From Firmicutes bacterium ADurb.Bin248 (GTDB lineage Bacteria; Bacillota; Clostridia; Christensenellales; CAG-138), in NCBI GenBank assembly GCA_002069725.1, contig MWBW01000010.1:1046-65045 (forward strand): a stretch of 64,000 nucleotides of DNA. The letters are read 5' to 3'. This document shows positions 1,600-52,130 of this stretch, one piece after another (the first letter of the stretch is position 1; the number at the start of each line of letters is the position of its first letter). The notes under the pieces are model-generated. The model saw nothing but the letters and a program-made list of their open reading frames with translations, made no database searches and had not been told where the DNA came from. Made by a program: the position numbers and the translations under genes.

Positions 1600-1612
1600 T
1601 TCATTACCTCTG

Positions 1613-3574
<1,962 letters not shown>

Positions 3575-7636: not shown

Positions 7637-7830
7637 TAATTGACAATTGACAATTGACAATGGACAATTGACAATCAAAAACGCCGCCTGCGGGCGGGGA
7701 CGAGAGCAATTGACAATTGACAATGGACAATTGTCAATCAAAAACGCCGCCTGCGGACGGGGACGAGAGCAATTGACAATGGACAATTGACAATCAAAAA
7801 CGCCGCCACGGGCGCGATTTTTCTGTTTTC
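7637..7830 (+). repeat. Heptad-array + GC-hairpin composite repeat, array A (3 units)
   Basis: Tandem CAATTGA/CAATGGA heptads (8 exact TTGACA). Each block ends CAATCAAAAACGCCGCC-TGCG-GGCGGGGACGAGAG. The middle unit is exactly 63 bp. The third unit degenerates into a hairpin plus ATTTTTCTGTTTTC. The array starts 1 nt after the mnmE stop. Confidence 0.9.
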
Positions 7831-22158: not shown

Positions 22159-22295
22159 GCAATTGATAATTGACAATTGGCAATGGACAATTGTCAATCA
22201 GGGAACGCCGCCGCGGGCGGGAACGGGACGCTTGAGAATTGACAATGGACAATGGACAATTGACAATCGGGGGAACGCCGCCGCGGGCGGGATTG
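22159..22295 (+). repeat. Heptad-array + GC-hairpin composite repeat, array B (2 units)
   Basis: GCAATTGATAATTGACAATTGGCAATGGACAATTGTCAATCAGGGAACGCCGCC-GCG-GGCGGGAACGGGACGCTTGAG, then AATTGACAATGGACAATGGACAATTGACAATCGGGGGAACGCCGCC-GCG-GGCGGGATTGCAGGG. Lies between divergent metG and the methyltransferase gene. Confidence 0.9.
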
Positions 22296-26785: not shown

Positions 26786-26861
26786 GCGCCCATAGCTCAG
26801 CGGATAGAGTGCCCGGCTACGAACCGGTAGGTCGCAGGTTCAAATCCTGCTGGGCGCGCCA
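26786..26861 (+). tRNA. tRNA-Arg (anticodon ACG)
   Basis: Hand-folded cloverleaf. Acceptor GCGCCCA/TGGGCGC. D arm GCTC-AGCGGATA-GAGT. Anticodon arm CCCGG-CTACGAA-CCGGT. T arm GCAGG-TTCAAAT-CCTGC. Discriminator G plus an encoded CCA. Confidence 0.9.
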
Positions 26862-30079: not shown

Positions 30080-30988
30080 TCAGACGCTCTCGTGCGGCGT
30101 GTAATAGCGCTCGTTCATGAAGCAGCGCGAGAAGCGGGAGGCCGTTTTGTTCCCCTTGCAGACCGCAAGCGTCAAATCGACCGTATACCATTTTTCGGTT
30201 TTGGAATCGTACGCGCTGTTCCAGGCGTGGTAGCCGTTGATCTTGGTGCTGTAGCCCTTGACAAGCTTGCACGGGATGCCCTGGCTGCGGCACATCGCGG
30301 CGAAAAGGGAGGCGAAATCGTAGCACACGCCTTTTTTGTTCGAAAGTATGCTCTCGGGGTTCGGCGTGTAGGCCGTGATCTGCCCGGAGATGACCTTGTT
30401 GGCGAAGTCGTAATCGTATTTGAAATTTTTTGCGATGTAATTGTAGATGGCGAGTATCTTCGCCTGATCGCCCTTGAGATCCTTGCACAGGGCGGCCGCC
30501 TTCCTGGCGATGGAGTCGTTCGCCGAGAAGGCGATTTCGGAAACGCTCCTGAGATACTGCGCATACTGCGGCGCAGCCGCGTTCGCCGCGCCCGCGGGTA
30601 CGGCGGAATCGCCCACGAGCGCCGTGAAGCTCTTCTGCGCGACGGTCACGTAGCTCGCGCCGACCTTCTTGAACAGCGCCGCGGAATAGCTGCCGCTGCC
30701 GCCGGTGAGCGCGAGCGAGAGGGTCATGCCCATTTTATAATCGTAGTAGGACCAGCTTCCGCCGTTAAAGCCCAGCCCCGCCTTCATCGCGGCGGAGGAG
30801 CCGTCGTCGTGAAAAAGGACGATGTACCCGAGCGAGGCCGTGGATGCGTCTATGCCCGCGCTCCGGCCCGCCGTCGAGAGCGAGCCGGAGGTGAGCGGCT
30901 CTCCCGCGGCGGCCGCGGGGGACGCAAGGGCGCTCAGCGCCAGGATCAGCGCGAGGGCAAGCGCGCCATGCCGGAACTGCTTTTTCAC
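30080..30988 (-). CDS. Secreted transglutaminase-like (Cys-His-Asp) protein
   Basis: GTG 30988 start (VKKQFRHGALALALILALSALASPAAAA signal peptide). Core KGVCYDFASLFAAMCRSQGIPCKLVKGY...GYHAWNSAY...WYTVDLT. Confidence 0.75.
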   Translation of the reverse strand: MKKQFRHGALALALILALSALASPAAAAGEPLTSGSLSTAGRSAGIDASTASLGYIVLFHDDGSSAAMKAGLGFNGGSWSYYDYKMGMTLSLALTGGSGSYSAALFKKVGASYVTVAQKSFTALVGDSAVPAGAANAAAPQYAQYLRSVSEIAFSANDSIARKAAALCKDLKGDQAKILAIYNYIAKNFKYDYDFANKVISGQITAYTPNPESILSNKKGVCYDFASLFAAMCRSQGIPCKLVKGYSTKINGYHAWNSAYDSKTEKWYTVDLTLAVCKGNKTASRFSRCFMNERYYTPHESV

Positions 30989-31434
30989 GTTTTCCGTCCT
31001 TTCTTTTCGCGAGGCGGCGCGCCGGGACCGGCCTATGCCTCTCAACTGCCCGAAAACGAAGAAAAAGCTCTCGTTTCGGCAACTGGCTGCCATGCGCTTT
31101 CGCGTTTAGGCCCTCTAGCTTTGCGGCCCCGCCTTTGGACGGGTGTGCCGGTTCGTCGGGATCTTCCGAACGGATATTCGATTCCGGCAACATTATAATT
31201 ACATCTACATAATATTGTCAAGTATAAAATTGTAACCGGGACGAAACGCGCCGTTTCCTGCCGAAAGCGCAGCCCCTGCGGCCGCGGCGCGGTTGCTCCG
31301 AGGTTGCGCGAGGGATGAAGCAAGGCGTCATGCGGCGCAACATTCGGCACAGGCCGTGCAATTCCACGCATTTCCGGAGGCGGAAGCCCAATTAGTTTAC
31401 AGAATATAGAAAAAAGGCGTCGAAAACGGCCTTT

Positions 31435-31544: not shown

Positions 31545-34500
31545 ATGATGAAGAGGATCGGCTTGGCCAAGCTCCTGGCGCTCGCCATGACGCTGGTGAT
31601 GGTGTTTTCGGCGGTGAGCCCGGCGCTCGCCTGCGACATCAGCCAGACGACTATTTACTATTATAGAACCGCTGCGGAGAGCGCTTATGCCTCTTACGAT
31701 GTGGCTGCGGGCACCGGCACGAGCACAACGGTCAAGCACACGCTCAAGTCCGCGCCCACGCGCAACGGCTACACGTTCACCGGCTTCAACGTGTATGTCG
31801 GCAGCAAGACGGGTACGCTCATCAAGAGCAACGCCGCACCGGGCACATCGGTGAGCATACCGCTCACGCGCACGAGCACGGGCAAGAGCTGGCCCACGAT
31901 ACATGTGGTGGCCCAGTGGAGATCCAACTGCGTCACCTACGACGTGATCTTCAAGACCGTGCTCGTGGACGGCAAGGGCGGGCAGATCGGCAAGACGGGC
32001 TCCACGCTCGGCTATGCCGACATCGAGTACCTCAACAAGCAGCCCGACACCACGTTCCCGGCGATCCCGGTGACCGATCCCGACCCGGGCTATGTTTTCC
32101 TCGGCTGGTACACCTACAACGGTGCCACCTATACGAAGGTGACGTCGTTCCCGACCAAGATCGACAAGGATTACACCTTCTATGCCCGCTGGGAGGCCAA
32201 GCCCTACGTCGAGCGCAGCGTCTACACCCTCCATTATATAGGTAAGCCTTCCGACACGACCGGCGTCGTGTGGCCCGCGGACGTCGAGAAGCAGGCGTCC
32301 CCCGTCACAACGCTGGGCGTTGCCAGCAAGGTGGGCGCGACGTTCAACGGATGGAAGCTCAACGGCACGGGCGCGAACCGGACGACCCTCGCCGCTTCGG
32401 ACTACACAAAGAGTACGGCCGCGCCCGTCATCACCTACGACGCCGCCACGGACTCCTTCATCCGCACGACCGAGTACATCGCCAACGTCCACGGCGCGTT
32501 CGTCGCGCTCGAGGACGTGATTGAAAAATACTTCTCCGTTACTTACAAAATCGACCTCAACGGCGACGGCGACTATGCCGACGCGGGGGAGACGACGCTC
32601 GCCTTCGTCGACGCCCCGGTTATGCCCACCGCGGTCAATGCCGACGTTTCGGTGCCGGGCTACACCTTCGCGGGCTGGTATAAGAACGGCTCGGCCCCGA
32701 AGCTCACGACGCTCGCCTTCTCGAACTACGATCTCGACGCCTCCCGCACGCAGACCATCCCCGCGGGCCCCGGCACCGCCAAACGCATCAAGAATTACTA
32801 TTCGATCACGCTCGTGGGCACGCTGACCAAGAAGACCTGCCAGAAGAATCTCTACAACGTGACCTACACCGGCGATAAGGCCGGGGCCACCACCTGGCCC
32901 AACGACGTTGCCAACGCCACGAGCGCGCCCTCTCTCGCCGCGGACGCGACGAAGAACGGCTATACCTTCAACGGCTGGAAGATCGGCGGCAGCTCCGTCG
33001 GCTCCATCAACTGGAGCGCGAGCTACGTCACCGTCGCGAGCCGCGAATACTACGACCCGGCGCTCGGAAAGTTCGTCACGGAGACCACGCGCTCGGTCAC
33101 GGTGGTCGGCACCTTCACCAAGTGCGCCGACATCGAGCAGAAATACTACACGGTCGTCTACAAGATCGACCTCAACCTCGACGGCGTCGCCGAGGAAGTC
33201 GCCATGCCCGGCTATACCGTGAACAACGTCACCCCGATGCCCACGGGCGTCGCGGGCGCGCCCTCCGGCATCCCCGCCGGGTACAGCTTCATCGGATGGA
33301 GCGAGTCCGCGCCGCTCGCGCAGAGCGACTTCTCCTTCGTATCCGAAGAGACGGTCCCCAGCGGCACGCCCGGCGTGGGCGCTGTGCACAAGGTCTACTA
33401 TAAGCTGGCCATTACCGGCACGCTGAACAAGCTGACCTGCCAGAAGGACCTCTACAACGTGACTTACACCGGCGACAAGGCCGGGGCCACCACCTGGCCC
33501 AACGACGTCGCCAACGCCGCGAGCGCGCCTTCCCTCGCCGCGGACGCGACGCGGAACGGCTATACCTTCAGCGGCTGGAAGATCAACGGCAGCTCCGTCG
33601 GCTCCATCAACTGGAGCGCGAGCTACGTCACCGTCGCGAGCCGCGAATACTACGATCCGACGCTCGGAAAGTTCGTCACGGAGACCACGCGCTCGGTCAC
33701 GGTGGTCGGCACCTTCACCAAGTGCGCGGACATCGAGCAGAAATATTACACCGTCGTCTACAAGATCGACCTCAACCTCGACGGCGTCGCCGAGGAAGTC
33801 GCCATGCCCGGCTACACCGTGAACAACGTCACCCCGATGCCCACGGGCGTCGCGGGCGCGCCCTCCGGCATCCCCGCCGGATACAGCTTCATCGGATGGA
33901 GCGAGTCCGCGCCGCTCACGCAGAGCGACTTCTCCTTCGTATCCGAGGAGACGGTCCCCAGCGGCACGCCCGGCGTGGGCGCTGTGCACAAGGTCTACTA
34001 CAAGCTGGCCATTACCGGCACGCTGAACAAGCTGACCTGCCAGACGACGCTCTACAACGTGACTTACATCGGCGACAAGGCCGGGGCCACCACATGGCCC
34101 AACGACGTCGCCAACGCCGCGAGCGCGCCCTCCCTCGCCGCGGACGCGACGAGGAACGGCTACACGTTCAGCGGCTGGAAGATCGGCGGCAGCCCCGTCG
34201 GTTCCATCAGCTGGAACGCGAGCTACGTCACCGTCACGAGCCGCGAGTATTACGACGTTTCTCTCGGCAGATTCGTCACGGAGACCACGCGCTCGGTCAC
34301 GGTGGTCGGCACCTTCACCAAGTGCGCCGACATCGAGCAGAAATACTACACGGTCGTCTACAAGATCGACCTCAACCTCGACGGCGTCGCCGAGGAAGTC
34401 GCCATGCCCGGCTATACCGTGAACAACGTCACCCCGATGCCCACGGGCGTCGCGGGCGCGCCCTCCGGCATCCCCGCCGGGTACAGCTTCATCGGATGGA

Positions 34501-37500
34501 GCGAGTCCGCGCCGCTCGCGCAGAGCGACTTCTCCTTCGTATCCGAAGAGACGGTCCCCAGCGGCACGCCCGGCGTGGGCGCTGTGCACAAGGTCTACTA
34601 TAAGCTGGCCATTACCGGCACGCTGAACAAGCTGACCTGCCAGAAGGACCTCTACAACGTGACTTACACCGGCGACAAGGCCGGGGCCACCACCTGGCCC
34701 AACGACGTCGCCAACGCCGCGAGCGCGCCTTCCCTCGCCGCGGACGCGACGCGGAACGGCTATACCTTCAGCGGCTGGAAGATCAACGGCAGCTCCGTCG
34801 GCTCCATCAACTGGAGCGCGAGCTACGTCACCGTCGCGAGCCGCGAATACTACGATCCGACGCTCGGAAAGTTCGTCACGGAGACCACGCGCTCGGTCAC
34901 GGTGGTCGGCACCTTCACCAAGTGCGCGGACATCGAGCAGAAATATTACACCGTCGTCTACAAGATCGACCTCAACCTCGACGGCGTCGCCGAGGAAGTC
35001 GCCATGCCCGGCTACACCGTGAACAACGTCACCCCGATGCCCACGGGCGTCGCGGGCGCGCCCTCCGGCATCCCCGCCGGATACAGCTTCATCGGATGGA
35101 GCGAATCCGCGCCGCTCGCGCAGAGCGACTTTTCCTTCGTATCCGAGGAGACGGTCCCCAGCGGTACGCCCGGCGTGGGCGCGGTGCGCAAGGTCTACTA
35201 TAAGCTCGCCGTCACCGGCACGCTGAACAAGCTGACCTGCCAGACGACGCTCTACAACGTGACCTACACCGGCGACAAGGCCGGGGCCACCACCTGGCCC
35301 AACGACGTCGCCAACGCCACGAGCGCGCCCTCCCTCGCCGCGGACGCGACGCGGAACGGCTACACCTTCAGCGGCTGGAAGATCGGCGGCAGCCCCATCG
35401 GCTCCATCAACTGGAACGCGAGCTACGTCACCGTCACGAGCCGCGAGTACTACGACGTTTCTCTCGGCAAATTCGTCACGGAGACCACGCGCTCGGTCAC
35501 GGTGGTCGGCACCTTCACCAAGTGCGCCGACATCGAGAAGGAATACTACACCGTCGTTTACCGGATCGACCTCAACCGGGACGGCGTCGACGAGATCGTC
35601 AACATGATGGGCTACAGCGTCAGCGAAGTCGAAACCATGCCCACGGGCGTGGCGGGTTCGCCCATCATCCCCAACGGCTATACCTTCGGCGGGTGGGACA
35701 AGGACGCGCCTCTGGCGAAGGGCGACTTCACCGTTGAGCGCCAGGGAACGACCCCGAGCACGCAGCCCGGCGTGGGCGCGGTGCACAGCGTGTATTATAC
35801 GCTCACCATCAAAGGCACGCTGGACAAGCAGACCCTTGCCAAGACCGTCTACACCGTTCTTTACACCGGCGAGAAAGCCGGAGCGACCACCTGGCCCAGC
35901 GACGTGGTCGACGCCGAGACCCCGCCGACCCTCGCCGCAGACGCGACGAAGAACGGCTATACCTTCAACGGCTGGAAGATCAACGGCAACTCCGCCGGCT
36001 CGCTCAACTGGAGCGCGGGCTACGTCGTGAGCACGACCGACGCGGAGTACTACGACGCGGGCCTCAAGAAGTTCGTGACGGTGACGCACAAGACCATCAC
36101 GGTCACGGGCGCGTTCACCAAGTGCGAGGACGTCGAGGAGAAATACTTCTCCGTCACCTATAAGATCGACCTCAACGGCGACGGCGACTATGCCGACGAG
36201 AACGAGACCGTCAACGCCTACGTCGAGGCATCCCCCATGCCCACCGCGGTCAGCGCCGAGCTCGCGCTCGACGGTTATACCTTCGCGGGCTGGTTCAAGC
36301 AGGGCACGGACACGAAGCTCACCGCGCTCGCCTTCACGGATTACACTTTCGACCGGACGGTGACCGTACCCGGCGGCGTGGGCACGCCCAAGACCATCAA
36401 GAACTACTACGTCATCACGCTGACGGGCACGCTGAGCAAGCAAACGCTCGCCAAGACCGACTACTCGGTGACCTACACGGGCGACAAGGCCGGCGCGACC
36501 TTCTGGCCGGCGGACGTCGTGCGGGCCGCGAGCGCGCCCTCCATCGCCGCAGACGCGACGAAGAACGGCTATACCTTCAGCGGCTGGAGCCCCGCCTCGC
36601 TCGACTGGAACGCGGGCTACGTCGACGTGCAGACCGATTCCGAGTATTATGATGCGAGCCTCAAGAAGTTCGTGACGGTGACGCACAAGACCATCACGGT
36701 CACGGGCGCGTTCGTCAAGTGCGAGGACGTCGAGGAGAAGTATTTCTCCGTCACCTACGAGATCGACCTCAACGGCGACGGCGACTATGCCGACGCGGGC
36801 GAAACCGATCCCGCATACGTCGAGACGTTCCCCATGCCTGCCTCCGTCAGGCCGGACGTTTCCAAGGACGGCTATACCTTCCACGGCTGGTATAAGAAGG
36901 GCACGTCGGAGAAGCTCAGCGCGCTCGCCTTCGCGAACTACGATTACGTGCGCACCGTCACCGTGCCGGCAGGCGCGGGCACGCCGCAGATCACCAAGCA
37001 CTATTACGCCGTCACGCTCAGGGGTTCGCTCGTCAAGAGAGTCTGCCAGCAGACCTATTACAGCGTGAGCTACACCGGCGACAAGGAAGGCGCCGCCACC
37101 TGGCCCAACGACGTTGTGAACGCAGCGAGCGCCCCGTCCCTCGCCGCCGACGCGACGAAGAACGGCTTCGACTTCACCGGCTGGAAGATCAACGGCAGCC
37201 CGGTATCCTCGCTCAACTGGTATGCGAGCTACGTGACGGTGACGAGCCTGCCCGAGGAATACGACCCCGAGAGCGGCATGTTCATCACGAAGATCCACCG
37301 CTCCATCACCGTCGAGGGCCGCTTCGTCAAGTGTCCGGATATCGAGCAGGCCTTCTACTCGGTCATTTATAAGATCGACCTCAATCTGGACGGCGTCGCC
37401 GAAGAGGTCAACATGCTCGGCTACACCGTCACGAACGTCACCAAGATGCCCACGGGCGTCGCGGGCTCGCCCGACATCCCCGCCGGCTACAGCTTCAACG

Positions 37501-40460
37501 GGTGGGATCAGGCGCCGCCGCTCGAACTGGGCGATTTCTCCGTGACCTCCGAGGGCACGACGCCCAGCACGCTGCCCGGCGTGGGCGCGATCCACACGGT
37601 GCATTACCTGTGCAGCATCAAGGGCGCCATGACCAAGAACGAGCTGAACGTGGATGTGTACACCGCGCGCTATAACGTGCGCAACGACACCGCCGCGACG
37701 GTCGGCACGTACGACGCGGAGCAGACGGGCTCGGCCCCGCTGAGCGCGCAGGCGCTGCCCTCCGTGACGAAGGGCTACTCGATCCACGGCTGGTACGTGC
37801 AGCTCGACGAGAGCAACACGCCTTACGGCGGGGGCGACGCGCTCCCCTGGGGCTTTGCGAGCGTCAGCGTCGATGAAAAGCTCGAGAAGCACGGCAGCGC
37901 CTGGTACTGGGTGACCTACCACTACTATGCGCTCGGCCTTTCCGCGGTTGTCAGCGAGAACGAGCACGGCCGGGCGGAAGAATACAACCTCAGCTACAGC
38001 ATCGCGGGCGGCCCGTACACCGATCCGACCAGCGGCGCCGCGCTCAGCGCAAGCGGCATACCCGGCGACGTCTTTGCCTCGCCGACCATGCCCGCGCTCG
38101 GAGGCAATCCCTCGATGAAGGGTCACTCGTTCCAAGGCTGGATGCAGGGCGGCGCCGCGATCGGCTCGAGCGCGGACATCGACTGGACCCAAACCACGCG
38201 GCAGGACTACGACGAAGCAAACGACCGCATCATCGACGTGACCATCTATACCGCTGCGGTTTCGGGCGGCTTTACGATGAACCAGGGCGAGCGGACGAGC
38301 TACAACCTCGCCTACTCCTTCGCCAACGAGCCTTATCAGACGCCCGACGGCCTGAACCTCACCATCGGCAACAGGCCGGCCGACGTGAACGGCGCTTCAA
38401 CCCCGCCCGCCCTCGCGGGCGCGCCCTCGGCGCAGGGCCATACCTTCACCGGCTGGACGCAGAACGGCGCCGCCGTGAGCGACGCGACGCTCGCCTGGGG
38501 CAGCGCGGCCGTCAGCTACGAATACGACGCGGACAACGACAGATTCGTTCGGGTCTCGACCTACAGCGCGGCGGTCGTCGGCGACTTCACGCGCAACACC
38601 GGCGAGGAAACCCTGTATAACCTGACTTACACCATCGACGGCGAGCCGTATACGGACCCCGAGGGCAGGACGCTCAGCATAGGCAACCTCCCCGCGAACG
38701 TGAACGACTCCACGACCCGGCCGGGCCTCGCGGGCGCGCCGACGCTCGACGGCCACTCCTTCTCGGGCTGGAAGCAGGCGGGCAATCCCGTGGACGACGC
38801 GAGCCTCGACTTCGGCACGCCGGGCGTCGGCTACCGCTACGACGAAGCAGGCGACCGCTACGTCATGGTCTACAACTACTCCGCGGCCGTCTCCGGCTCC
38901 TTCACGCTCAACGAGATCGTCGAGAAGGAGATCTGGAACCTCACCTACACCGGCGACAAGGATCTCGCCGACCCGGGCACTTGGCCCGACGACCTCACCA
39001 ACCAGGCCAGCGAGCCCGCGCTGACCGGCCTGACGCCGGCCAAACGCGGCTACACCTTCGGCGGCTGGAAGCAGGGCGGCGCGTCCGTGACGGACATCGC
39101 CTGGTCCGCGACGCTGAGCTACGCGCTGGGCGCGGGCAACCGCTTCGTAAAGACCACCACGTATGAGGCGGCCATCGAAGGCAGGCTCACCATGAAGGGC
39201 GGCGTCGACGAGTATGTCTACATCGTGGACTACACCGTGCACGGCGGCTCGAACGATTACAGCCACCTCGACGTCAACGTCACGAATCCTCCCGCGCTCC
39301 CGACCATCGAACCCGAGCCCAGCGAGAGCGGCAAGGTGTTCGGCGGCTGGAACCCCGGTTCGCTCGACTGGGACGGCACCCCGGCCGTGCCGGGTGAACC
39401 GCGCTTCGACGAGACGCTCGACAAGTGGGTCACGCCCTACACCAAGAAGATCGACGTCACGGGCAGCTTCGGAGAGGTCGGGCATGTGTACGTCTACGAG
39501 CTGAGCTTCACCGGCCCCTCCGGCGCGACGTTGCCCGGCATGAAGAGCGGCACCTCCGTGCAGACCATAGAGGGCGAGACCGCCTCGCTCGACGGCCAGC
39601 GCTTCACGGGCTGGAGCCCCTCGAGCATCGGCGAGAGCGACTACACGGAGAACGAATCCCGCAAGACCGTTTCGGGCGACGGCCTGACCGTTACGCATTA
39701 CATGGAGGCCAGCACGCAGGCGCAGTTCGTCCCGACGGAAGGCCGCGAGCACTATACGCTGCATTATGAGATCGTGGGCAGCGTGCCCGGCCAGCCCGCC
39801 AACCCGCCGGACGAGACGGGCACAAGCCCCATCACGCCCAGCGCGCCGGTGAGCCTCGAGGGCTACAACTTCTCCGGCTGGTCCACCCCGGCGTGGGGCG
39901 TCGTGAACGTCACCAGCGAGATCGTCGACGGCGTCGATGTTTCCACGACCTGGTACGAAGCCACGGTCATCGGCTCCTTCACCGACATGCAGATCGTCGA
40001 GGACATCCGCTATTCGCTGCTCTATCAGGGCTACGTCAGCGGCGTCACCAACTGGCCCGGCGACGTGATCGACTCGACCATACCGCCCGCGCTCTCGGGC
40101 AGCCCGTACCTGTCCGGCTATCAGTTCAACGGCTGGGCGCCCGGTACGCTCGACTGGTCGAAGGCGAGCGCCAGCGTCGGCACGCAGGTCGTCACGCCCG
40201 AGGGGGGCGCGCCCTACATACTCAGGACCACGACCTACACGCTGATCGTCACGGCCAGCTTCTCGGGCTACTACCCGCCGCCGACGTCCTATCCCACGTA
40301 CGGCCCCGTGCCCACGCCGACCAAGCCGCCTCTGGGCACGCCGCAAACTGGCAACACCGGCCTGATCATCTTCTTCGCGGTGTTCTCGCTGATCACGGTC
40401 ATCTTCACGGCGAGCCTGTTCATCCGCAAGAAGATGCGCGCCATCGAGGAAGAGGATTGA
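31545..40460 (+). CDS. Giant (2971 aa) cell-surface protein built of InlB B-repeat / Listeria-Bacteroides-repeat modules with a C-terminal xPQTG sorting signal
   Basis: RBS GAGGGGG. Signal peptide MMKRIGLAKLLALAMTLVMVFSAVSPALA. Dozens of (P)x(K/R)xGY(T/S)FxGW motifs. The C-terminus is PLGTPQTGNTGLIIFFAVFSLITVIFTASLFIRKKMR. Confidence 0.9.
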   Translation: MMKRIGLAKLLALAMTLVMVFSAVSPALACDISQTTIYYYRTAAESAYASYDVAAGTGTSTTVKHTLKSAPTRNGYTFTGFNVYVGSKTGTLIKSNAAPGTSVSIPLTRTSTGKSWPTIHVVAQWRSNCVTYDVIFKTVLVDGKGGQIGKTGSTLGYADIEYLNKQPDTTFPAIPVTDPDPGYVFLGWYTYNGATYTKVTSFPTKIDKDYTFYARWEAKPYVERSVYTLHYIGKPSDTTGVVWPADVEKQASPVTTLGVASKVGATFNGWKLNGTGANRTTLAASDYTKSTAAPVITYDAATDSFIRTTEYIANVHGAFVALEDVIEKYFSVTYKIDLNGDGDYADAGETTLAFVDAPVMPTAVNADVSVPGYTFAGWYKNGSAPKLTTLAFSNYDLDASRTQTIPAGPGTAKRIKNYYSITLVGTLTKKTCQKNLYNVTYTGDKAGATTWPNDVANATSAPSLAADATKNGYTFNGWKIGGSSVGSINWSASYVTVASREYYDPALGKFVTETTRSVTVVGTFTKCADIEQKYYTVVYKIDLNLDGVAEEVAMPGYTVNNVTPMPTGVAGAPSGIPAGYSFIGWSESAPLAQSDFSFVSEETVPSGTPGVGAVHKVYYKLAITGTLNKLTCQKDLYNVTYTGDKAGATTWPNDVANAASAPSLAADATRNGYTFSGWKINGSSVGSINWSASYVTVASREYYDPTLGKFVTETTRSVTVVGTFTKCADIEQKYYTVVYKIDLNLDGVAEEVAMPGYTVNNVTPMPTGVAGAPSGIPAGYSFIGWSESAPLTQSDFSFVSEETVPSGTPGVGAVHKVYYKLAITGTLNKLTCQTTLYNVTYIGDKAGATTWPNDVANAASAPSLAADATRNGYTFSGWKIGGSPVGSISWNASYVTVTSREYYDVSLGRFVTETTRSVTVVGTFTKCADIEQKYYTVVYKIDLNLDGVAEEVAMPGYTVNNVTPMPTGVAGAPSGIPAGYSFIGWSESAPLAQSDFSFVSEETVPSGTPGVGAVHKVYYKLAITGTLNKLTCQKDLYNVTYTGDKAGATTWPNDVANAASAPSLAADATRNGYTFSGWKINGSSVGSINWSASYVTVASREYYDPTLGKFVTETTRSVTVVGTFTKCADIEQKYYTVVYKIDLNLDGVAEEVAMPGYTVNNVTPMPTGVAGAPSGIPAGYSFIGWSESAPLAQSDFSFVSEETVPSGTPGVGAVRKVYYKLAVTGTLNKLTCQTTLYNVTYTGDKAGATTWPNDVANATSAPSLAADATRNGYTFSGWKIGGSPIGSINWNASYVTVTSREYYDVSLGKFVTETTRSVTVVGTFTKCADIEKEYYTVVYRIDLNRDGVDEIVNMMGYSVSEVETMPTGVAGSPIIPNGYTFGGWDKDAPLAKGDFTVERQGTTPSTQPGVGAVHSVYYTLTIKGTLDKQTLAKTVYTVLYTGEKAGATTWPSDVVDAETPPTLAADATKNGYTFNGWKINGNSAGSLNWSAGYVVSTTDAEYYDAGLKKFVTVTHKTITVTGAFTKCEDVEEKYFSVTYKIDLNGDGDYADENETVNAYVEASPMPTAVSAELALDGYTFAGWFKQGTDTKLTALAFTDYTFDRTVTVPGGVGTPKTIKNYYVITLTGTLSKQTLAKTDYSVTYTGDKAGATFWPADVVRAASAPSIAADATKNGYTFSGWSPASLDWNAGYVDVQTDSEYYDASLKKFVTVTHKTITVTGAFVKCEDVEEKYFSVTYEIDLNGDGDYADAGETDPAYVETFPMPASVRPDVSKDGYTFHGWYKKGTSEKLSALAFANYDYVRTVTVPAGAGTPQITKHYYAVTLRGSLVKRVCQQTYYSVSYTGDKEGAATWPNDVVNAASAPSLAADATKNGFDFTGWKINGSPVSSLNWYASYVTVTSLPEEYDPESGMFITKIHRSITVEGRFVKCPDIEQAFYSVIYKIDLNLDGVAEEVNMLGYTVTNVTKMPTGVAGSPDIPAGYSFNGWDQAPPLELGDFSVTSEGTTPSTLPGVGAIHTVHYLCSIKGAMTKNELNVDVYTARYNVRNDTAATVGTYDAEQTGSAPLSAQALPSVTKGYSIHGWYVQLDESNTPYGGGDALPWGFASVSVDEKLEKHGSAWYWVTYHYYALGLSAVVSENEHGRAEEYNLSYSIAGGPYTDPTSGAALSASGIPGDVFASPTMPALGGNPSMKGHSFQGWMQGGAAIGSSADIDWTQTTRQDYDEANDRIIDVTIYTAAVSGGFTMNQGERTSYNLAYSFANEPYQTPDGLNLTIGNRPADVNGASTPPALAGAPSAQGHTFTGWTQNGAAVSDATLAWGSAAVSYEYDADNDRFVRVSTYSAAVVGDFTRNTGEETLYNLTYTIDGEPYTDPEGRTLSIGNLPANVNDSTTRPGLAGAPTLDGHSFSGWKQAGNPVDDASLDFGTPGVGYRYDEAGDRYVMVYNYSAAVSGSFTLNEIVEKEIWNLTYTGDKDLADPGTWPDDLTNQASEPALTGLTPAKRGYTFGGWKQGGASVTDIAWSATLSYALGAGNRFVKTTTYEAAIEGRLTMKGGVDEYVYIVDYTVHGGSNDYSHLDVNVTNPPALPTIEPEPSESGKVFGGWNPGSLDWDGTPAVPGEPRFDETLDKWVTPYTKKIDVTGSFGEVGHVYVYELSFTGPSGATLPGMKSGTSVQTIEGETASLDGQRFTGWSPSSIGESDYTENESRKTVSGDGLTVTHYMEASTQAQFVPTEGREHYTLHYEIVGSVPGQPANPPDETGTSPITPSAPVSLEGYNFSGWSTPAWGVVNVTSEIVDGVDVSTTWYEATVIGSFTDMQIVEDIRYSLLYQGYVSGVTNWPGDVIDSTIPPALSGSPYLSGYQFNGWAPGTLDWSKASASVGTQVVTPEGGAPYILRTTTYTLIVTASFSGYYPPPTSYPTYGPVPTPTKPPLGTPQTGNTGLIIFFAVFSLITVIFTASLFIRKKMRAIEEED
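32838..35837 (+). repeat. Five in-frame ~600-bp tandem copies (200-aa double B-repeat supermodule) inside the giant gene
   Basis: The C-Q-(K/T)-x-LYNVTY(T/I)GDKAGATTWPNDVANA module restarts at 32838, 33438, 34038, 34638 and 35238. More diverged copies follow at about 35838, 36447 and 37043. Segment 33072-33904 is base-for-base identical to 34272-35104. Confidence 0.95.
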
Positions 40461-40836: not shown

Positions 40837-41853
40837 ATGAAAACCAAAAGCATCTTCAAAAAGTTGGCGGCGCTCGCCGTCGTCCTCGCGCTCGTGCTGA
40901 GTCTCGGGGGCGCCGCACTGGCCGCGCCGGCGACGGTGACGGTTAACTTTAACGCGAACGGCGGCTCTCCGACACCGGCGTCGATAGAGGTTCCCGTGAC
41001 CGGAAGCGGCTGGACAGCAAGAATTACATTCAGCTTACCCACCGAGGCGGAATGCTCCAGGCCCGGGTATGCGCTGCTTTACTGGAATCACGGCGTCCTG
41101 CCCGGCGAGCCTGGCGATACGATGACCATTTTTCTGTTTGACAACTATTCCGCGCGGACCGTTACCGCACAGTGGATCGCCGCGGAGGATCATTACATCC
41201 TCAAATATGACATCACGTCCACGATCGACGGTCAGCCTGCCGATCCCCCGGATGAGCATTCTGACGCTCCCATCGTACCCGACGCCGAGGCATCCATGCC
41301 GGGTTATTATTTCTCCGGTTGGGCGCCTAATCCTCCCGACTGGAAGCTCATCAGCAGGGAACTTGTGGGCAGGGGAGACGACACCCACATGGTGCGCTTC
41401 TACGAGGCCACCGTCGAAGGCTTATTCACCGAGCTGGAGCCTGTTTACAGGACGACGTACACCCTCATCTTCGAGAACAAGCAGCCCGGCGTCGTATTCT
41501 GGCCGAATGATACCATAGGCTCCGAAACCATACCCTCGTATCCGGGAGACCCGGTGCTGGCGGGCTATCGGTTCGTCGGTTGGGACCCCGCTACGCTCAA
41601 GTGGGACAAAGCCAAGGTGACGGTCACCTACGATGTCATAACTCCGGAGGGGGATGACGCTCCGTATTTGCTGATCACCACGAATCGTGCGCTGACGCTC
41701 ACAGCCGTGTTCGAGGGCATTCCGACGCCGGCGACCCCGATTGAAGCGCCGCAGACGGGCGACGTCAACTATCTGGGCTACGCCATGCTGCTGCTCGGGC
41801 TCTCCGCGGGCCTCGCAGGCTTCGTGTTCGTGCGCAGCCGCAGGAAGAATTGA
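40837..41853 (+). CDS. Cell-surface InlB B-repeat protein (338 aa) with APQTGD sorting signal
   Basis: Signal peptide MKTKSIFKKLAALAVVLALVLSLGGAALA. PGYYFSGW and AGYRFVGW modules. C-terminus IEAPQTGDVNYLGYAMLLLGLSAGLAGFVFVRSRRKN. Its C-terminal third parallels the end of the giant protein (HY(T/I)L.Y(E/D)I...GQPA(N/D)PPDE...). Confidence 0.88.
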   Translation: MKTKSIFKKLAALAVVLALVLSLGGAALAAPATVTVNFNANGGSPTPASIEVPVTGSGWTARITFSLPTEAECSRPGYALLYWNHGVLPGEPGDTMTIFLFDNYSARTVTAQWIAAEDHYILKYDITSTIDGQPADPPDEHSDAPIVPDAEASMPGYYFSGWAPNPPDWKLISRELVGRGDDTHMVRFYEATVEGLFTELEPVYRTTYTLIFENKQPGVVFWPNDTIGSETIPSYPGDPVLAGYRFVGWDPATLKWDKAKVTVTYDVITPEGDDAPYLLITTNRALTLTAVFEGIPTPATPIEAPQTGDVNYLGYAMLLLGLSAGLAGFVFVRSRRKN

Positions 41854-43102: not shown

Positions 43103-44170
43103 TCAGCCGGCGTAGTTTCGGTCGATTCTTCTTGTCATGGAGTCCGGATCGGAGGCGAAGTTGACCGCGTTGTCGTAGCTGATGCGCCCCTTGCGGTAGA
43201 GCTGCGTGATGCTCGCGCCCATGGAGATCATGGTTTCCGGGTTCGCGTAGATCACGTTGTCGATCTGGTGCGCTTTGCCCTCGCGGATGAGGTTCCGGAC
43301 GGCCGGGTTCGCGATCATGACCTCGAACGCGGGCGTCACGCCGCCGTCCACGGTGGGGATGAGCTGCTGGGATACGACCGCGTTGAGCGTCATCGAGAGC
43401 TGCACGCGCACCTGCTGCTGCTGGCCCGTCGGGAACACGTCTATGATCCTGTCCACGGTTTTGGCGGCGCCTATGGTGTGCAGCGTGGAGAGCACGAGCT
43501 GCCCGGTTTCCGCCGCGGTCATGGCGATGCTGATGGTCTCGTAATCCCGCATCTCGCCGACGAGTATCACGTTGGGCGCCTGGCGCAGCGCGTAGCGCAG
43601 CGCGCTCTTGAAGTCCTCGGTATCCAGGCCGACCTCGCGCTGGCTCACGATGCTCCTGTCGTTCTTGTAGAGGTACTCGATGGGGTCCTCAATCGTGATG
43701 ACGTGGCTGGGCAATGTCCTGTTGATGCGGTCCACGATGCAGGAGAGCGTCGTGGATTTGCCGCTGCCCGCGGGACCGGTGATCAGCACGAGGCCCTTCT
43801 TGGCGCTGTAAAGGTTGATCACGCCCGCCGGGATGCTGAGCAGCGCGGGGTCGGGCAGTTCGTGGCGCACGACCCGGATCACGGCCGCGCAGGAGCCCCG
43901 CTGGCGGTACACCGCCGTGCGGAACCTGCCCACGCCCGGTATGGAGAGGGAAAAGTCGTCGTCGCCCGTGCTCTGGAAGCGTTCCAGGCTGCGGTTCCCG
44001 GCGAGCTGGTAGATCTCGCGCACGAGCGCCTCGGTCTTGGCTGAGGTCATCGGCGCGTCCCCGCGGGGGGTGACCACGCCCGCGATTTTGAACGCGAGCG
44101 GGGAGCCCGGCGCGATGATCACATCGGATACGTTGAGGCTGATGGCCTCGATGAGCGTTTTTTCAATCAT
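43103..44170 (-). CDS. pilT: PilT-family type IV pilus retraction-type ATPase
   Basis: 355 aa. LITGPAGSGKSTTL (Walker A), VILVGEMRD (Walker B), TGQLVLSTLHT, and the PilT signature NPAVRNLIREGKAHQIDN. Confidence 0.85.
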   Translation of the reverse strand: MIEKTLIEAISLNVSDVIIAPGSPLAFKIAGVVTPRGDAPMTSAKTEALVREIYQLAGNRSLERFQSTGDDDFSLSIPGVGRFRTAVYRQRGSCAAVIRVVRHELPDPALLSIPAGVINLYSAKKGLVLITGPAGSGKSTTLSCIVDRINRTLPSHVITIEDPIEYLYKNDRSIVSQREVGLDTEDFKSALRYALRQAPNVILVGEMRDYETISIAMTAAETGQLVLSTLHTIGAAKTVDRIIDVFPTGQQQQVRVQLSMTLNAVVSQQLIPTVDGGVTPAFEVMIANPAVRNLIREGKAHQIDNVIYANPETMISMGASITQLYRKGRISYDNAVNFASDPDSMTRRIDRNYAG

Positions 44171-44672
44171 ACATTGTCACCCCGTCCCATAGAAATGGCA
44201 GTTGAGTATATTCCAGATCCCCGGTGACGACCGTGGCGTTGCGAACGAGCGTATAGCCGCCGCCGTCGAGCCGCACCCGGGTTTCCAGCGCCGTGTAGTC
44301 CGAAACCGCCGTGAAGAACGTTATGGTCGCCTCGCTTTGCGCCTTCTCATAAACGTACTTTTCGGCGGCGAGCGCCCCCTCCGCGTCCGGCCCGTCGAGT
44401 ATGCCCCCGGCGAGCAGCGCGTCGAGCCGGGCGAGACGCCGCTGCGCTTCGGCGTCCGCCTCATACCAGCGCACCGTGTTGTCGCCCATGCGCGAGGCGA
44501 GGCGCATCTCCGCGTTCGCGCTCACGAGCGAGAGCGCCGCGAAGCACACGAGGCAGAGCATCACGAACAGTATGATGACGCTCGGCGCGCCCACCGCGGC
44601 GAAGCCGCGCGCCGCGCGCCCGGGCGGGAGGCGCCGCGCGCTCACGCGCCGCCTCCCATAAAGCGCGCGCAT
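44163..44672 (-). CDS. Small membrane-anchored protein of the type IV filament-like operon
   Basis: 169 aa. Arg-rich N-terminus, then a single TM segment SVIILFVMLCLVCFAALSLV. Overlaps both neighbours, suggesting translational coupling. Confidence 0.5.
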   Translation of the reverse strand: MRALYGRRRVSARRLPPGRAARGFAAVGAPSVIILFVMLCLVCFAALSLVSANAEMRLASRMGDNTVRWYEADAEAQRRLARLDALLAGGILDGPDAEGALAAEKYVYEKAQSEATITFFTAVSDYTALETRVRLDGGGYTLVRNATVVTGDLEYTQLPFLWDGVTMYD

Positions 44673-45055
44673 GAAAGAGAATAGATCGCTTCCCCGTCCT
44701 TCTCGCGGACGGACACCGTCATTTCACACATGCCGCCGGCCCGCTCGCACTCGAGCCGGAGTATGTACTCCTGCAGCCCGCCCGGCAAAAAGCTCGGATC
44801 GAGCCACGCCTCGTATCCGCCCTCGGCCTCAACCGCGCCGTAACGCACGGTGAAATCCGCCTCGGGGGAAATTGACGTGCGAACGAGCTCCGCCGCGGAG
44901 CTCGCCGCGAGTATCGCGCCGGAGAGCTCCGCGGCCTCTCCGGCGCGCTTGTCCGCGCCGACGAAGAGCGTGATCACCGCCGTCGCCGCGAGCGCGAAGA
45001 ACAGTATGACCGCAGTCATCTCCACGAGAAAGGCGTAGCCACCGCGCGCGTTCAC
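44642..45055 (-). CDS. Pseudopilin-like protein (degenerate prepilin leader)
   Basis: 137 aa. MNARGGYAFLVEMTAVILFFALAATAVITL resembles the (K/R)G-FTLxEM class III leader but has one extra residue before the Glu. Confidence 0.5.
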   Translation of the reverse strand: MNARGGYAFLVEMTAVILFFALAATAVITLFVGADKRAGEAAELSGAILAASSAAELVRTSISPEADFTVRYGAVEAEGGYEAWLDPSFLPGGLQEYILRLECERAGGMCEMTVSVREKDGEAIYSLSCARFMGGGA

Positions 45056-45543
45056 GGGGAGGCCTCCCCGGCGCGGAGCCGCACATCGAGCGCGCGCATG
45101 GTCCCCTCGAAGGTGTAGGCCGTGAAGGCGTAGCCGCCCTCGATCTCGCGTATGGTGAAATCCGCGAGCTCGGCGATCCTCTGCCCCGCGCCGGGATCGA
45201 AGCGCGCGGCGGCCTCGACGGTCTGCTCCATCAGCGCGCCGTCGAAGAAATAGACCAAAGTCACGCTTTCCCGCTCCTCGTCCCGCAGGCGGAGCACGGG
45301 GAGCCCTTCCGCCTGCTCGATGTCCACGCCGCCAGCGCCGTCGTGCGCGTGGAGCTTGTTGGCGACGTACGAGAGGGACGCGCGCAGGTTGTACCCGTCG
45401 TCCATGCGTCCGGCCACGCGCTCATATACGGCCGCGCCGTAGAGCGCCTGCAGCAGGCTCAGCAAAGCGAATGCCGTGAACAGCAGCAGCATCGCCGCCG
45501 TCGCAGTGATGCCGCGCCCCGCGTCCCGAAGCATGCGCGTCAC
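45052..45543 (-). CDS. Small N-terminally anchored protein (possibly DUF4860-like) of the filament operon
   Basis: 163 aa. MTRMLRDAGRGITATAAMLLLFTAFALLSLL. 4-nt overlaps with both neighbours. Confidence 0.45.
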   Translation of the reverse strand: MTRMLRDAGRGITATAAMLLLFTAFALLSLLQALYGAAVYERVAGRMDDGYNLRASLSYVANKLHAHDGAGGVDIEQAEGLPVLRLRDEERESVTLVYFFDGALMEQTVEAAARFDPGAGQRIAELADFTIREIEGGYAFTAYTFEGTMRALDVRLRAGEASP

Positions 45544-45869
45544 CTCCTCGCGACCCAGATGGTCGGGTAGACGTTCGAGGCGAAGGCCTCGTGGTGGATG
45601 TAATACTTGCTCTGGTCGACCTCGAGGCCGTAGTTTTCAATGAGATAATCGATGCCGGGCGGATAGAAGCCCTCCATGGCGTAGCAGGAAACCACCGCGC
45701 GGTTGACCGCGCGCTCGACGAGCGCAAGCTCCTTTTGCTCCACGCCCAGCCGCGTGCGCTCTATGCCGCGGAGCATCAGCGTCAGGCAGGCCAGGAAAAC
45801 CGCCGCCGTGACGAGAAGCCCGCCCCACCACGGAAAGCCCGCGTTCCGTTTTCCGATGCGCCGCGCCAT
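45540..45869 (-). CDS. Small N-terminally anchored protein of the filament operon
   Basis: 109 aa. MARRIGKRNAGFPWWGGLLVTAAVFLACLTLML. A G-F junction is present but there is no Glu5. Confidence 0.45.
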   Translation of the reverse strand: MARRIGKRNAGFPWWGGLLVTAAVFLACLTLMLRGIERTRLGVEQKELALVERAVNRAVVSCYAMEGFYPPGIDYLIENYGLEVDQSKYYIHHEAFASNVYPTIWVARR

Positions 45870-45879
45870 ACCGCCCCGC

Positions 45880-46923
45880 TCAGCCGATGCCCGCCATGAT
45901 GTCCATCAGCGGCAGCGTCACCGAGAGCAGTATCGCCCCGATGATGAGGCACAGCAGCGCCACGAGCGCGGGCTCTATGACGCCCACGAGCCGGGCGATC
46001 GAGCGGTCGATCTCATCCTCGTAGAGGGCGGCGACCTTGGCGCTCACGCGCTCGAGCGCGCCCGCGCGAAAGCCCACGCCGAGTATGTGCGCGTACATGC
46101 CCGGGAAGAGACCGCTTTCCTCGACGGCTTTGGAAAAGGACGCGCCCTGGGCTATGGCCTCGCGGCAGGCGAGTATCTGCGCGGCCGCCCTGTCGCTGTC
46201 TACGACGAGGGGCAGTTTCGCGAGCGCGTCGTCGAGCGCGTACCCGCTTTCGAGCAGCATCGAGAGCGCGAAGGCGAAACGTCCCGCGGCGATTTTTTCG
46301 GCGAGCCTTCGCGTGAAGCCGAGGCGCGCCAGGCCGCGCATGAGCGCGGCGTAGCCCGAGGCGGAGCGTAGCCTCGCAAAGAGATGGATGCACAGGACGA
46401 GCATCAGCGCCGCGAGCGCGAGCGCGAGGTAGCCCGCGATCTCGCCGAACGACGCGATCTCCGGAGAAACCGCGCCCGCCGCGCCCCCGAGGTCCGCGAA
46501 CACATCCGCGAAAACGGGCAGCACCCGGATGAGCAGCACCGCGATCACGACGATCATGATCGCCACGAGCGCCATCGGGTAGAACACCGCGGATTTGATC
46601 TGGTTTCTGACGGCGTGCTCGCGCTCGTAGTAGAGGCCGAGCGCCTCCATGACCTGCTCGAGCTTGCCCGCGGCTTCGCCCAGATCCACCATGCCCAGCA
46701 TATAATCCGGGAAGGCGTCCGTTGCGCGCATCGCGGGTGCGAGTCCGGCGCCGCCCTGCAAGGCGGTATGGAGCCTCGCGACGACGGGGTCGCCGCTTTC
46801 CTTGGCCATGGCCGCCATGCCGTCGGGCAAAAACATGCCGGTGCGCAGCACCAGCGCAAGCTCCGCGCAAAACGCGGAAAGCTCCTGCGCCGTATAGGGC
46901 CGGACGCCGTTTTTGTTCGCCAT
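45880..46923 (-). CDS. Type II secretion system F-family (PilC/ComGB-like) platform protein
   Basis: 347 aa. Two T2SSF-like halves with conserved TM helices (AVFYPMALVAIMIVVIAVLLIRVLPVF... and ...ALVALLCLIIGAILLSVTLPLMDIM). Confidence 0.8.
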   Translation of the reverse strand: MANKNGVRPYTAQELSAFCAELALVLRTGMFLPDGMAAMAKESGDPVVARLHTALQGGAGLAPAMRATDAFPDYMLGMVDLGEAAGKLEQVMEALGLYYEREHAVRNQIKSAVFYPMALVAIMIVVIAVLLIRVLPVFADVFADLGGAAGAVSPEIASFGEIAGYLALALAALMLVLCIHLFARLRSASGYAALMRGLARLGFTRRLAEKIAAGRFAFALSMLLESGYALDDALAKLPLVVDSDRAAAQILACREAIAQGASFSKAVEESGLFPGMYAHILGVGFRAGALERVSAKVAALYEDEIDRSIARLVGVIEPALVALLCLIIGAILLSVTLPLMDIMAGIG

Positions 46924-46972: not shown

Positions 46973-47001
46973 ATTCTATAATAACATTCTTCCCCTTACA
47001 A
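46973..47001 (-). promoter_or_regulatory. Candidate sigma-A promoter of the filament operon (TTGTAA-17-TAGAAT)
   Basis: On the minus strand, TTGTAA is at 47001..46996, followed by a 17-nt spacer and TAGAAT at 46978..46973. RBS GAAGGGAGG precedes the ATG at 46923. Confidence 0.45.
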
Positions 47002-50118: not shown

Positions 50119-50192
50119 GGGCAATTGACAATTGACAATTGACAATTGACAATTAAATTTATCCGCAGGGGCCGATTCCATATCGGCCCGCG
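50119..50192 (+). repeat. Heptad block C (5 x CAATTGA) plus a different hairpin, between glpK and the GlpA-like gene
   Basis: GGGCAATTGACAATTGACAATTGACAATTGACAATTAAATTTATCCGCAGGGGCCGAT-TCCAT-ATCGGCCC. The heptads are antisense relative to the operon. Confidence 0.85.
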
Positions 50193-51780: not shown

Positions 51781-52130
51781 TAATTGTCAATGATCCCGTC
51801 CCGCCCGCGGCGGCGTTCTTTGATTGTCAATTATCAATTGTCAATTGTCAATTATCAATTATCAATGATCCCATCCCGCCCGCAGGCGGCGTTCCCCGAT
51901 TGTCAATTGTCAATTATCAATTATCAATTATCCCATCCCGCCCGCGGCGGCGTTCCCCGATTGTCAATTGTCAATTATCAATTATCAATTATCCCGTCCC
52001 GCCCGCGGCGGCGTTCCCCGATTGTCAATTGTCAATTGTCAATTATCAATTATCAATTATCCCATCCCGCCCGCAGGCGGCGTTCCCCGATTGTCAATTG
52101 TCAATTGTCAATTGTCAATTATCAATTGCC
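51781..52130 (-). repeat. Heptad-array + GC-hairpin composite repeat, array D (5 units; largest)
   Basis: Five CCC(G/A)TCCCGCCCGC(A)GGCGGCGTTC hairpin cores centred near 51808, 51883, 51945, 52006 and 52074 (spacings 75, 62, 61, 68 bp). They are separated by CAATTGT/CAATTAT heptad runs. This is the reverse complement of arrays A and B, so it is co-oriented with glgA. Confidence 0.92.

Follow-up and report, generated by a model that had tools for sequence, protein, structure and literature searches.

A conserved operon encoding a platform protein, four small anchored proteins and a PilT-family ATPase in Clostridia: a candidate type IV filament machine

We analyzed a six-gene operon in a 64,000-nucleotide stretch of DNA from Firmicutes bacterium ADurb.Bin248 (contig MWBW01000010.1, positions 1,046 to 65,045; referred to here in its full length as the window), which an earlier note had described as a minimal, type IV filament-like system of unusual organization. 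Six open reading frames (ORFs) lie in series on the minus strand from 46923 to 43103, in the order F-s1-s2-s3-s4-T, and their reading frames, together with a coding-type codon bias in all six (G+C of 0.81–0.91 at third codon positions vs 0.44–0.51 at second positions, in a GC-rich genome), bear out the gene calls of that note. The first gene, F (45880..46923), encodes a GspF/PilC-type platform protein of 347 amino acids (aa) with two T2SSF domains. It is followed by s1 (45540..45869), a 109-aa N-terminally anchored protein that is cassette-specific and belongs to no Pfam family; s2 (45052..45543), a 163-aa DUF4860 protein (PF16152) with a predicted pilin-like lollipop shape; s3 (44642..45055), a 137-aa pilin-like protein with a basic leader, a hydrophobic α1N segment and a glutamate at position +5 (Glu+5); and s4 (44163..44645, or from an ATG at 44672), an anchored protein of ~160 aa (169 aa from the ATG) with a transmembrane (TM) helix and no Glu+5. 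The last gene, T (43103..44170), encodes a PilT-family hexameric ATPase of 355 aa, the only ATPase of the cassette.

The genes were said to be tightly coupled by overlaps of 4 to 31 nt. Most junctions do overlap, by 4 nt at both s1/s2 and s2/s3 and by 8 nt at s4/T, but F and s1 are separated by a 10-nt gap and the 31-nt overlap between s3 and s4 is probably an artefact of the start call. The GTG at 44645 has a GGGAGG 6 nt upstream, overlaps the s3 stop by 4 nt and agrees with the starts of the orthologues, and it is probably the true start of s4; with this start the 31-nt overlap vanishes and the protein has 160 aa, so that of the proposed sizes of the small proteins (109, 163, 137 and 169 aa) the first three stand and the fourth is probably too long. 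The deposited version of the s2 ORF begins three residues later than the window ORF. A GGGAGG ribosome-binding site precedes the F start codon (ATG 46923) by 6 nt. The promoter proposed for the operon, TTGTAA-17-TAGAAT, was located on the minus strand at 46973..47001 and is the sole such σ70-like candidate between 42800 and 47500, but it matches at 9 of 12 positions, and because ~0.7 sites of this quality are expected by chance in that region it is weak evidence when taken alone.

The PilT/PilU profile TIGR01420 is matched by T at 398.8 bits (curated cutoff, 319.1) over model positions 2–342 of 343, whereas the profiles for ComGA, GspE and PilB give 123.6, 123.4 and 111.7 bits, respectively. 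The same division was observed among solved structures: PilT chains score 255–309 bits (Aquifex PilT, 2gsz/2ewv, 309) and PilU 230, as compared with ~80–91 bits for chains of the extension-type ATPases PilB, PilF and GspE (PilB ~91, GspE ~82). The translation contains a Walker A motif (GPAGSGKST), a Walker B motif (ILVGEMRD), a His box (TLHT) and the PilT signature AVRNLIREGKAHQI, with the PilT-type motif AVRNLIRE. Across the cassette ATPases, all 44 show the His-box pattern and 42 the Walker B pattern, and 29 fit a strict AIRNLIRE-like pattern. Judged by profile and motif, T is a genuine full-length PilT-family ATPase, which agrees with the retraction signature reported in the earlier note; a grouping of T with the extension ATPases, the outcome that the note had named as contrary to its view, did not occur (399 bits for PilT vs ~110–124 for PilB, GspE and ComGA). 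A SpoIIIA-like sporulation channel was also considered and is ruled out by the family assignment of T. Searches with PADLOC and PHROGs profiles gave only generic P-loop or secretion-ATPase matches, and because these matches were generic we rejected an origin of the cassette in a defence system or a phage. As a separate observation, the cassette ATPase of Hungatella effluvii (L015:10001-11350) is 449 aa long, and its C-terminal part (residues 288–447) gives a second alignment with the C-terminal region of T, which suggests a partial internal duplication.

The platform protein F matches Pfam T2SSF (PF00482; E 3e-34) in two stretches of one polytopic protein and aligns with Myxococcus xanthus PilC in the PDB at 122.9 bits (residues 13–344 on 78–414), lacking roughly the first 60–75 residues of PilC and GspF. 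It is as long as ComGB and aligns with that model from end to end (positions 5–331 of 332), and yet the scores for the named equivalogs are all below cutoff (GspF, 171.5 vs 424; PilC, 141.7 vs 700; ComGB, 96.1 vs 240). By these profile scores, F belongs to the GspF/PilC/ComGB superfamily and to none of its named subfamilies (GspF, PilC, HofC, XpsF or ComGB).

The six-gene arrangement is strongly conserved. In a sample of 84 non-duplicate loci, 43 contained both F and T, and all 43 of these had all six genes in identical order with median intergenic gaps of −4 to +15 nt, so that both the platform-first, ATPase-last order and the conservation of the cassette, for which the earlier note had proposed a check, are borne out. 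A contig scan with patterns drawn from the DUF4860 alignment, which proved too specific, returned six close relatives from Christensenellales; in the close relatives among the metagenome-assembled genomes (MAGs) of this order the same six genes always follow a glpK/glpA/DUF1667 block. More distant ATPases (56–64% identity to T) likewise belong to this cassette in all five cases examined, the carriers being Caproiciproducens sp. R2, Hungatella effluvii, Ca. Soleaferrea massiliensis and two metagenome contigs (one of them L097, from ENA/NCBI). According to the NCBI taxonomy the named hosts span three orders, Lachnospirales, Eubacteriales (Acutalibacteraceae) and Christensenellales. A scan of metagenomes with the s1 alignment as its seed gave >439 relatives confirmed by tblastn, of which the best 80 loci were examined, and with s1 as the phmmer query 1.84 billion representatives yielded 962 clusters at 50% identity with E≤1e-3 and 337 with E≤1e-10; the 150 matches listed are all 80–147 aa long, mostly 100–115. 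The cassette is widespread in gut and digester Clostridia.

The description of the system as minimal understates it, since a transglutaminase-like (TG) protein is a seventh partner and a dedicated regulator is often adjacent in other lineages. Outside the Christensenellales clade, a secreted or lipoprotein TG (Transglut_core plus DUF553) nearly always adjoins the cassette. Of the 41 loci with enough upstream sequence, 31 have the TG gene immediately upstream of F; the gene is divergent in two loci and downstream of T in one. In the window, a secreted 302-aa TG protein is encoded on the minus strand at 30080..30988, 12 kb from the operon, and is the displaced seventh member of the cassette; between the two lie two sortase-substrate-like surface protein genes and an oxidoreductase gene. 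This protein matches Transglut_core (E 4.8e-22) and DUF553. A profile built from 36 TG proteins linked to the cassette aligns with it over nearly its full length (162 bits, E 1.9e-51) and gave no match to the other TG-domain ORF of the window. The TG proteins carry a signal peptide or a lipobox. We considered the TG protein as a substitute for a prepilin peptidase and ruled this out because it is placed outside the membrane, whereas prepilin leaders are cleaved at the cytoplasmic face (PMC10191384).

The leader of the window TG gene contains a c-di-GMP-I (cyclic di-GMP) riboswitch aptamer (RF01051; 31075..31159, minus strand; 67.1 bits vs a gathering threshold of 35, E 5.8e-11, full model 1–87), which lies between the TG start codon and a consensus σ70 promoter, TTGACA-18-TATAAT, that matches at 12 of 12 positions (31192..31221, minus strand) and would serve both the riboswitch and the TG gene. 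A hairpin (GCCGAAACGA...TCGTTTTCGGC) is found 3′ of the aptamer, with no clear T-run behind it. In other lineages the cassette is flanked, in at least seven loci, by a regulator composed of a SARP module (winged helix-turn-helix plus BTAD) and a C-terminal GGDEF-like domain (L014:4609-5823, L016:4129-5337, L022:3222-4427, L041:9356-10576, L053:1810-3126 on the minus strand, L079:9332-10528 and L098:4644-5888). The regulator profile matched AfsR in the PDB through the SARP part (E 2.8e-9) and the diguanylate cyclase 4urg through the GGDEF-like part (E 2.7e-6); the latter part escaped a Pfam search at E≤0.01. Its GGDEF motif has degenerated to S-x-x-Q-[YF], but an R-x-x-D five residues upstream of the motif is invariant. 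Given the known I-sites of GGDEF domains, this intact RxxD suggests that the regulator is a c-di-GMP receptor, perhaps a c-di-GMP-sensing activator of transcription. Two independent links to c-di-GMP are thus present, the TG riboswitch in the window and the SARP/GGDEF-like regulator in other lineages.

One explanation for such an operon is that it encodes a divergent Com pseudopilus for DNA uptake, in which ComGA was swapped for a PilT-type motor and the pseudopilins have drifted. Like comGA-GG, the cassette is a compact operon in a monoderm host that encodes a platform of ComGB size, aligning with the whole ComGB model, one ATPase of ~350 aa and a set of four pilin-like small proteins. At least one minor pilin of Com systems, ComGG, departs from the canonical N-terminus, and so does s4. 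In addition, PilT-powered retraction drives DNA uptake in diderms (PMC6916266). However, both Com equivalog cutoffs are missed (ComGA, 123.6 vs 300 bits; ComGB, as given above), the ATPase is of the PilT clade, and the order of platform and ATPase is the reverse of that in com operons. Moreover, no ComG-family match was found for s1–s4 in Pfam or NCBIfam, and neither a ComGC-type major pilin nor ComC was found in the 64-kb window or within ~5–10 kb of the cassette in other loci, the regions to which all of our tests for absent components refer. In the flanks, comEA and comEC do not recur, and the TG partner and the c-di-GMP links are foreign to Com systems. We therefore consider a Com origin improbable. 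The earlier note had offered either a degenerate Com pseudopilus or a distinct PilT-driven machine; because the ComGA and ComGB cutoffs are not reached and the conserved TG partner is foreign to Com, the distinct machine is favored.

Turning to the small proteins, each of s1–s4 has a short basic N-terminus followed by one TM helix, a feature already recognized in the window sequences that recurs in the family alignments. In s1, s2 and s4 the N-terminus is of a plain signal-anchor type without Glu+5. The s1 family has an invariant core, C-Y-A-x-E-G-x-Y-P ... Y-G ... N..P, and in s4 a conserved G-[AST]-[PS]-S motif leads into a V-L-C-L TM helix, with G28 and Y70 invariant. The s2 protein matches PF16152 (DUF4860) at E 1.4e-17 and 63.9 bits, against a gathering threshold of 25, and its orthologue carries this domain in every locus listed, both in the Christensenellales MAGs and in the loci with distant ATPases. 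Apart from this match, Pfam searches with wide alignments of s1, s3 and s4 gave scattered chance matches alone, NCBIfam returned nothing for s1–s4, and profile searches of the PDB with s1, s2 and s4 gave nothing meaningful. Profile-profile comparison of s1–s4 with one another (hhalign) showed weak similarity (probability 35–56%), which within the s2, s3 and s4 pairs is confined to the N-terminal TM helix and its continuation.

The N-terminus of s3 is of a different kind. The family consensus, M-N-x-R-S-[RK]-S-[T/G/S]-L-F-L-[IM]-E-x-L-I-V-I, comprises in most members a leader of 7–9 residues, rich in Arg, Lys and Ser, and then a hydrophobic α1N segment, and it has the make-up by which a class III signal peptide is defined, a hydrophobic α1N preceded by a short hydrophilic leader (PMC10191384). 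The closest approach to a prepilin leader seen in the earlier note was RGGYAFLVEM, with the Glu displaced by one residue; in the family alignment, however, the Glu is at +5 in an invariant register (161 of 164 sequences), and the oddity of the window protein is the Tyr at −1. Among 161 sequences of a sample that is biased to the termite gut, position −1 is Thr in 90, Gly in 22, Ser in 17, Tyr in 13, Asn in 8, Ala in 5 and Asp in 4. The broader statement that the small proteins lack a canonical prepilin leader was confirmed. Position −1 of s3 is mostly not Gly, and s3 gave no match to N_methyl (PF07963). When the s3 family profile was searched against the PDB, 13 of 16 matches were type IV pilins with the family Glu placed on pilin Glu5; the best were Geobacter PilA-N (E 0.005) and M. 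xanthus PilA (E 0.006), and the alignments are in register with pilins of Geobacter, Myxococcus, Thermus and Neisseria. Some s3 homologues are labelled 'pseudopilin PulG' by JGI.

AlphaFold2 models extend this likeness to s2. The s2 model has a predicted local distance difference test score (pLDDT) of 88.0 and a predicted template-modelling score (pTM) of 0.71, with an N-terminal helix of 62 residues (5–66) and 8 β-strands; the s3 model, built from 121 sequences, has a pLDDT of 90.2 and a pTM of 0.73, with a helix at 4–60, a short helix and five strands. Both proteins are thus confidently predicted to have the helix-plus-β-sheet 'lollipop' architecture of pilins. The best Foldseek match of s2 in the PDB was 5bw0_A, from an XcpV/XcpW complex (probability 0.99, TM-score 0.44–0.47), with an E of 0.078 that is not significant; because the chain has 152 residues it is probably XcpW/GspJ. 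For s3 the top match was XcpV/GspI (6utu_A), again not significant at E 0.087, and 5vtm_V was matched with a TMt of 0.63. The pilin-fold test proposed in the earlier note was therefore answered in part, with a pilin-like architecture confidently predicted for s2 and s3 but PDB matches that are not significant.

These results bear on the possibility that the operon builds no filament and that s1–s4 are bitopic scaffolds in the role of PilN/PilO or GspL/GspM, with PilT and the platform powering the extraction or insertion of anchored proteins or the export of the TG protein. Such a role would account for the presence of a pilin-type N-terminus in s3 alone, the signal anchors of the other three proteins, the Foldseek matches that fall short of significance and the absence of a major pilin from the cassette and its flanks. 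In addition, the current view of PilT-type motors is that they extract subunits from an assembly and do not build one (PMC10191384). The predicted architecture argues the other way. The s2 and s3 models have an N-terminal helix of 57–62 residues followed by an all-β or mostly β head, whereas PilN and PilO have α/β ferredoxin-like cores. Moreover, the top PDB matches of s2 and s3 are both minor pseudopilins of the same type II secretion system (T2SS) tip complex, and the Glu+5 of s3, a residue that in pilins serves subunit-subunit docking (PMC10191384), is nearly invariant. We consider a scaffold without a filament to be a poor explanation, with little chance of being correct.

The core of a type IV filament (T4F) system is described in reviews as pilins, a prepilin peptidase, an extension ATPase and a platform (PMC10191384; PMC6668835). 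This core set (PMC10191384) is incomplete at the locus, since neither a prepilin peptidase nor an ATPase of the PilB, GspE, ComGA or TadA type was found near the cassette. A second secretion-type ATPase was detected in no locus, and the 43 complete cassettes contain the PilT-type enzyme alone. The canonical prepilin motif was absent from all frames of the 64-kb window and from ORFs of ≥70 aa in 96 loci. The prepilin-peptidase motif of the GxGD[..]K type was likewise absent from the 96 loci, and its two matches in short frames of the window are read as spurious. The recurrent flanking families of the cassette are a regulator, sortases (three loci) and lineage-specific housekeeping genes, with no prepilin peptidase (A24) among them, and no separate major-pilin gene was found in the cassette or its flanks. 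The earlier report of no prepilin peptidase or obvious major pilin at the locus thus holds for the window and for the flanks of other loci.

The missing components might be supplied from elsewhere if the cassette were an accessory module of an ordinary type IVa pilus (T4aP), contributing a second platform, minor pilins and a retraction motor to a system whose PilB, PilD, PilMNO and major pilin are encoded at other sites. With the T4aP, including those of monoderm Clostridium and of Streptococcus sanguinis, the cassette shares a PilT-family ATPase, a PilC/GspF-type platform and one subunit with α1N and Glu5; PilT is the canonical T4aP retraction motor, and every profile identifies T as a full-length PilT. 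The genes of a T4aP are often dispersed, one prepilin peptidase can serve more than one system (PMC6668835), minor pilins show poor conservation from system to system (PMC6916266), and ~13% of the s3 sequences, in the termite-gut-biased sample, have Gly-1. However, the cassette has its own platform, which is short of the first ~60–75 residues of PilC, and in other lineages its own regulator; the near-constant TG partner is no component of a T4aP; no pilB, pilD, pilMNO or canonical pilin lies within ~5–10 kb of any locus; and no class III signal peptide of canonical type is present in the cassette and flanks. In most members position −1 of s3 is Thr, Ser, Tyr, Asn or Asp, after which, to our knowledge, classical prepilin peptidases are not expected to cleave. 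We regard a T4aP module as unlikely, although less so than either a Com pseudopilus or a scaffold without a filament.

The interpretation that we favor, with moderate confidence, is that the operon encodes a self-contained machine of the T4F superfamily in monoderm Clostridia. The bacterial T4F subtypes recognized in reviews are T4aP, type IVb pili (T4bP), Tad, Com, mannose-sensitive haemagglutinin (MSHA) pili and T2SS (PMC10191384; PMC6668835). The cassette fits none of these and is probably an undescribed subtype of type IV filament machine; in the open-access full-text literature we found no description of it, including under the term 'DUF4860'.

Several results weigh against this interpretation. 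Foldseek gave no significant match in the PDB for the s2 and s3 models, with E of ~0.08 and a full-model TM-score of <0.5. No Pfam, NCBIfam or PDB sequence match was obtained for s1 and s4, in which no pilin homology is detectable. Gly-1 is needed for processing in known type IV pilin systems, and this cleavage site is not conserved in s3; the T4F that we know of polymerize processed pilins alone. The c-di-GMP riboswitch was found in none of 21 other cassette loci, and the six-gene operon of the window has neither a riboswitch nor an adjacent regulator. Finally, the cassette could be served in trans by PilB, PilD and a major pilin from genes at other sites in the genome.

If the operon does encode a self-contained machine, we propose that the PilT-type hexamer docks beneath the platform F and that the platform, in ATP-driven rotation, would shift pilin-like subunits from the membrane to a short wall-crossing helical assembly and back. 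The proteins s1–s4 would assemble through their N-terminal helices. Because the translation of s1–s4 is coupled within a single operon and no separate gene for a major pilin was found in the cassette or its flanks, we expect the product to be a short pseudopilus of fixed composition, or a tip-like complex comparable to GspH-I-J-K, and not a long fibre. Since Gly-1 is not conserved, the leaders of the subunits may be left uncleaved by a classical prepilin peptidase or may be processed otherwise. T would be the sole motor and would probably act in both directions. The TG exoprotein would act outside the membrane on the wall, on the subunits or on a substrate, and c-di-GMP may turn the system on, in which case attachment to surfaces or secretion, and not housekeeping, would be the expected role. 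This specific version, an unnamed T4F subtype confined to monoderm Clostridia and common in gut microbiomes, in which PilT is the only, two-way motor of a four-subunit pseudopilus that forms without a classical peptidase and works with the TG protein under c-di-GMP control, is put forward tentatively and with less confidence than the membership in the superfamily; passing large surface proteins through the wall, anchoring them there or attachment are its possible functions.

We know of no described system with PilT as its only motor. A single ATPase that does both jobs has precedent, however, because PilT is required for extension of the Vibrio cholerae MSHA pilus (PMC9815625) and the Tad ATPase CpaF is described as bifunctional (PMC11300603). 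Each case differs from the cassette, in that the MSHA system keeps its own extension ATPase, MshE, and CpaF belongs to another ATPase clade than T. The tip complex of the T2SS, GspH-I-J-K (XcpU-V-W-X), offers a further likeness, as it too consists of four small co-encoded pilin-like proteins, and the best structural matches of s3 and s2, not significant at E of ~0.08, are chains of the XcpV/XcpW(/XcpX) complex. Some cassette subunits lack Glu5, and the tip complex is capped by a subunit that lacks it (PMC10191384). In contrast to the T2SS, the cassette has Glu5 in one of its four small proteins, has no GspE, GspG, GspC/L/M or secretin, and belongs to a monoderm host.

In current models PilT is an accessory for retraction only, and a PilB-type ATPase, a prepilin peptidase and pilins with Gly-1 and Glu5 form the universal T4F core. 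If our interpretation is correct, the cassette would be a natural test of whether a motor of the PilT clade can work alone and of whether leader cleavage is obligatory. It would also provide a function for DUF4860 and for three unannotated families that are abundant in Clostridia of the human gut, the termite gut and digesters, and it would represent a new output of c-di-GMP signalling in these bacteria. Because the cassette occurs in cultured strains, Hungatella effluvii and Caproiciproducens sp. R2, it is accessible to experiment.

Some further features of the window and of the other loci were recorded. By raw count, sortase or sortase-substrate genes occur near the cassette in roughly 8 of ~30 long loci; sortase-related neighbours were noted in the window and in L004, L009, L016, L020, L022, L051, L097, L035 and L084. 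In the window these are a 2971-aa, highly repetitive surface protein (31545-40460, plus strand) that ends in TPQTG with a TM helix and basic tail behind it, and one of 338 aa (40837-41853, plus strand) with the C-terminus APQTGD. A complete SpaA-type pilus cluster is present in L097, and giant SLH/Flg_new proteins are encoded in other loci. Between the SpaA-type pilin and sortase genes of L097 lies a borderline match to a hepatitis delta virus (HDV)-like ribozyme of the F. prausnitzii type (RF02682; L097:19905-19972, plus strand; 45.8 bits vs a gathering threshold of 44).

The window also contains a dispersed intergenic repeat (51822-52129, 7636-7795, 22159-22268 and 50121-50154). In each unit of ~60–70 nt the heptamer AATTGTC/AATTATC is repeated in runs, after which comes a palindromic, GC-rich stretch (CCCGCCCGCGGCGGCGTTCCCCG), and five tandem copies lie between glpK and a glycogen synthase gene; the heptamer-run pattern has 45 matches in the window, compared with 0.01 expected by chance. 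A skipping-rope RNA (RF02924; 28290-28361, plus strand; 58.7 bits), a structured RNA without known function, lies near a tRNA (26786-26858). Finally, because the window starts with ORFs that by eye resemble gyrA, gyrB and recF (1-4700, minus strand), the replication origin region may be no more than ~45 kb from the locus.

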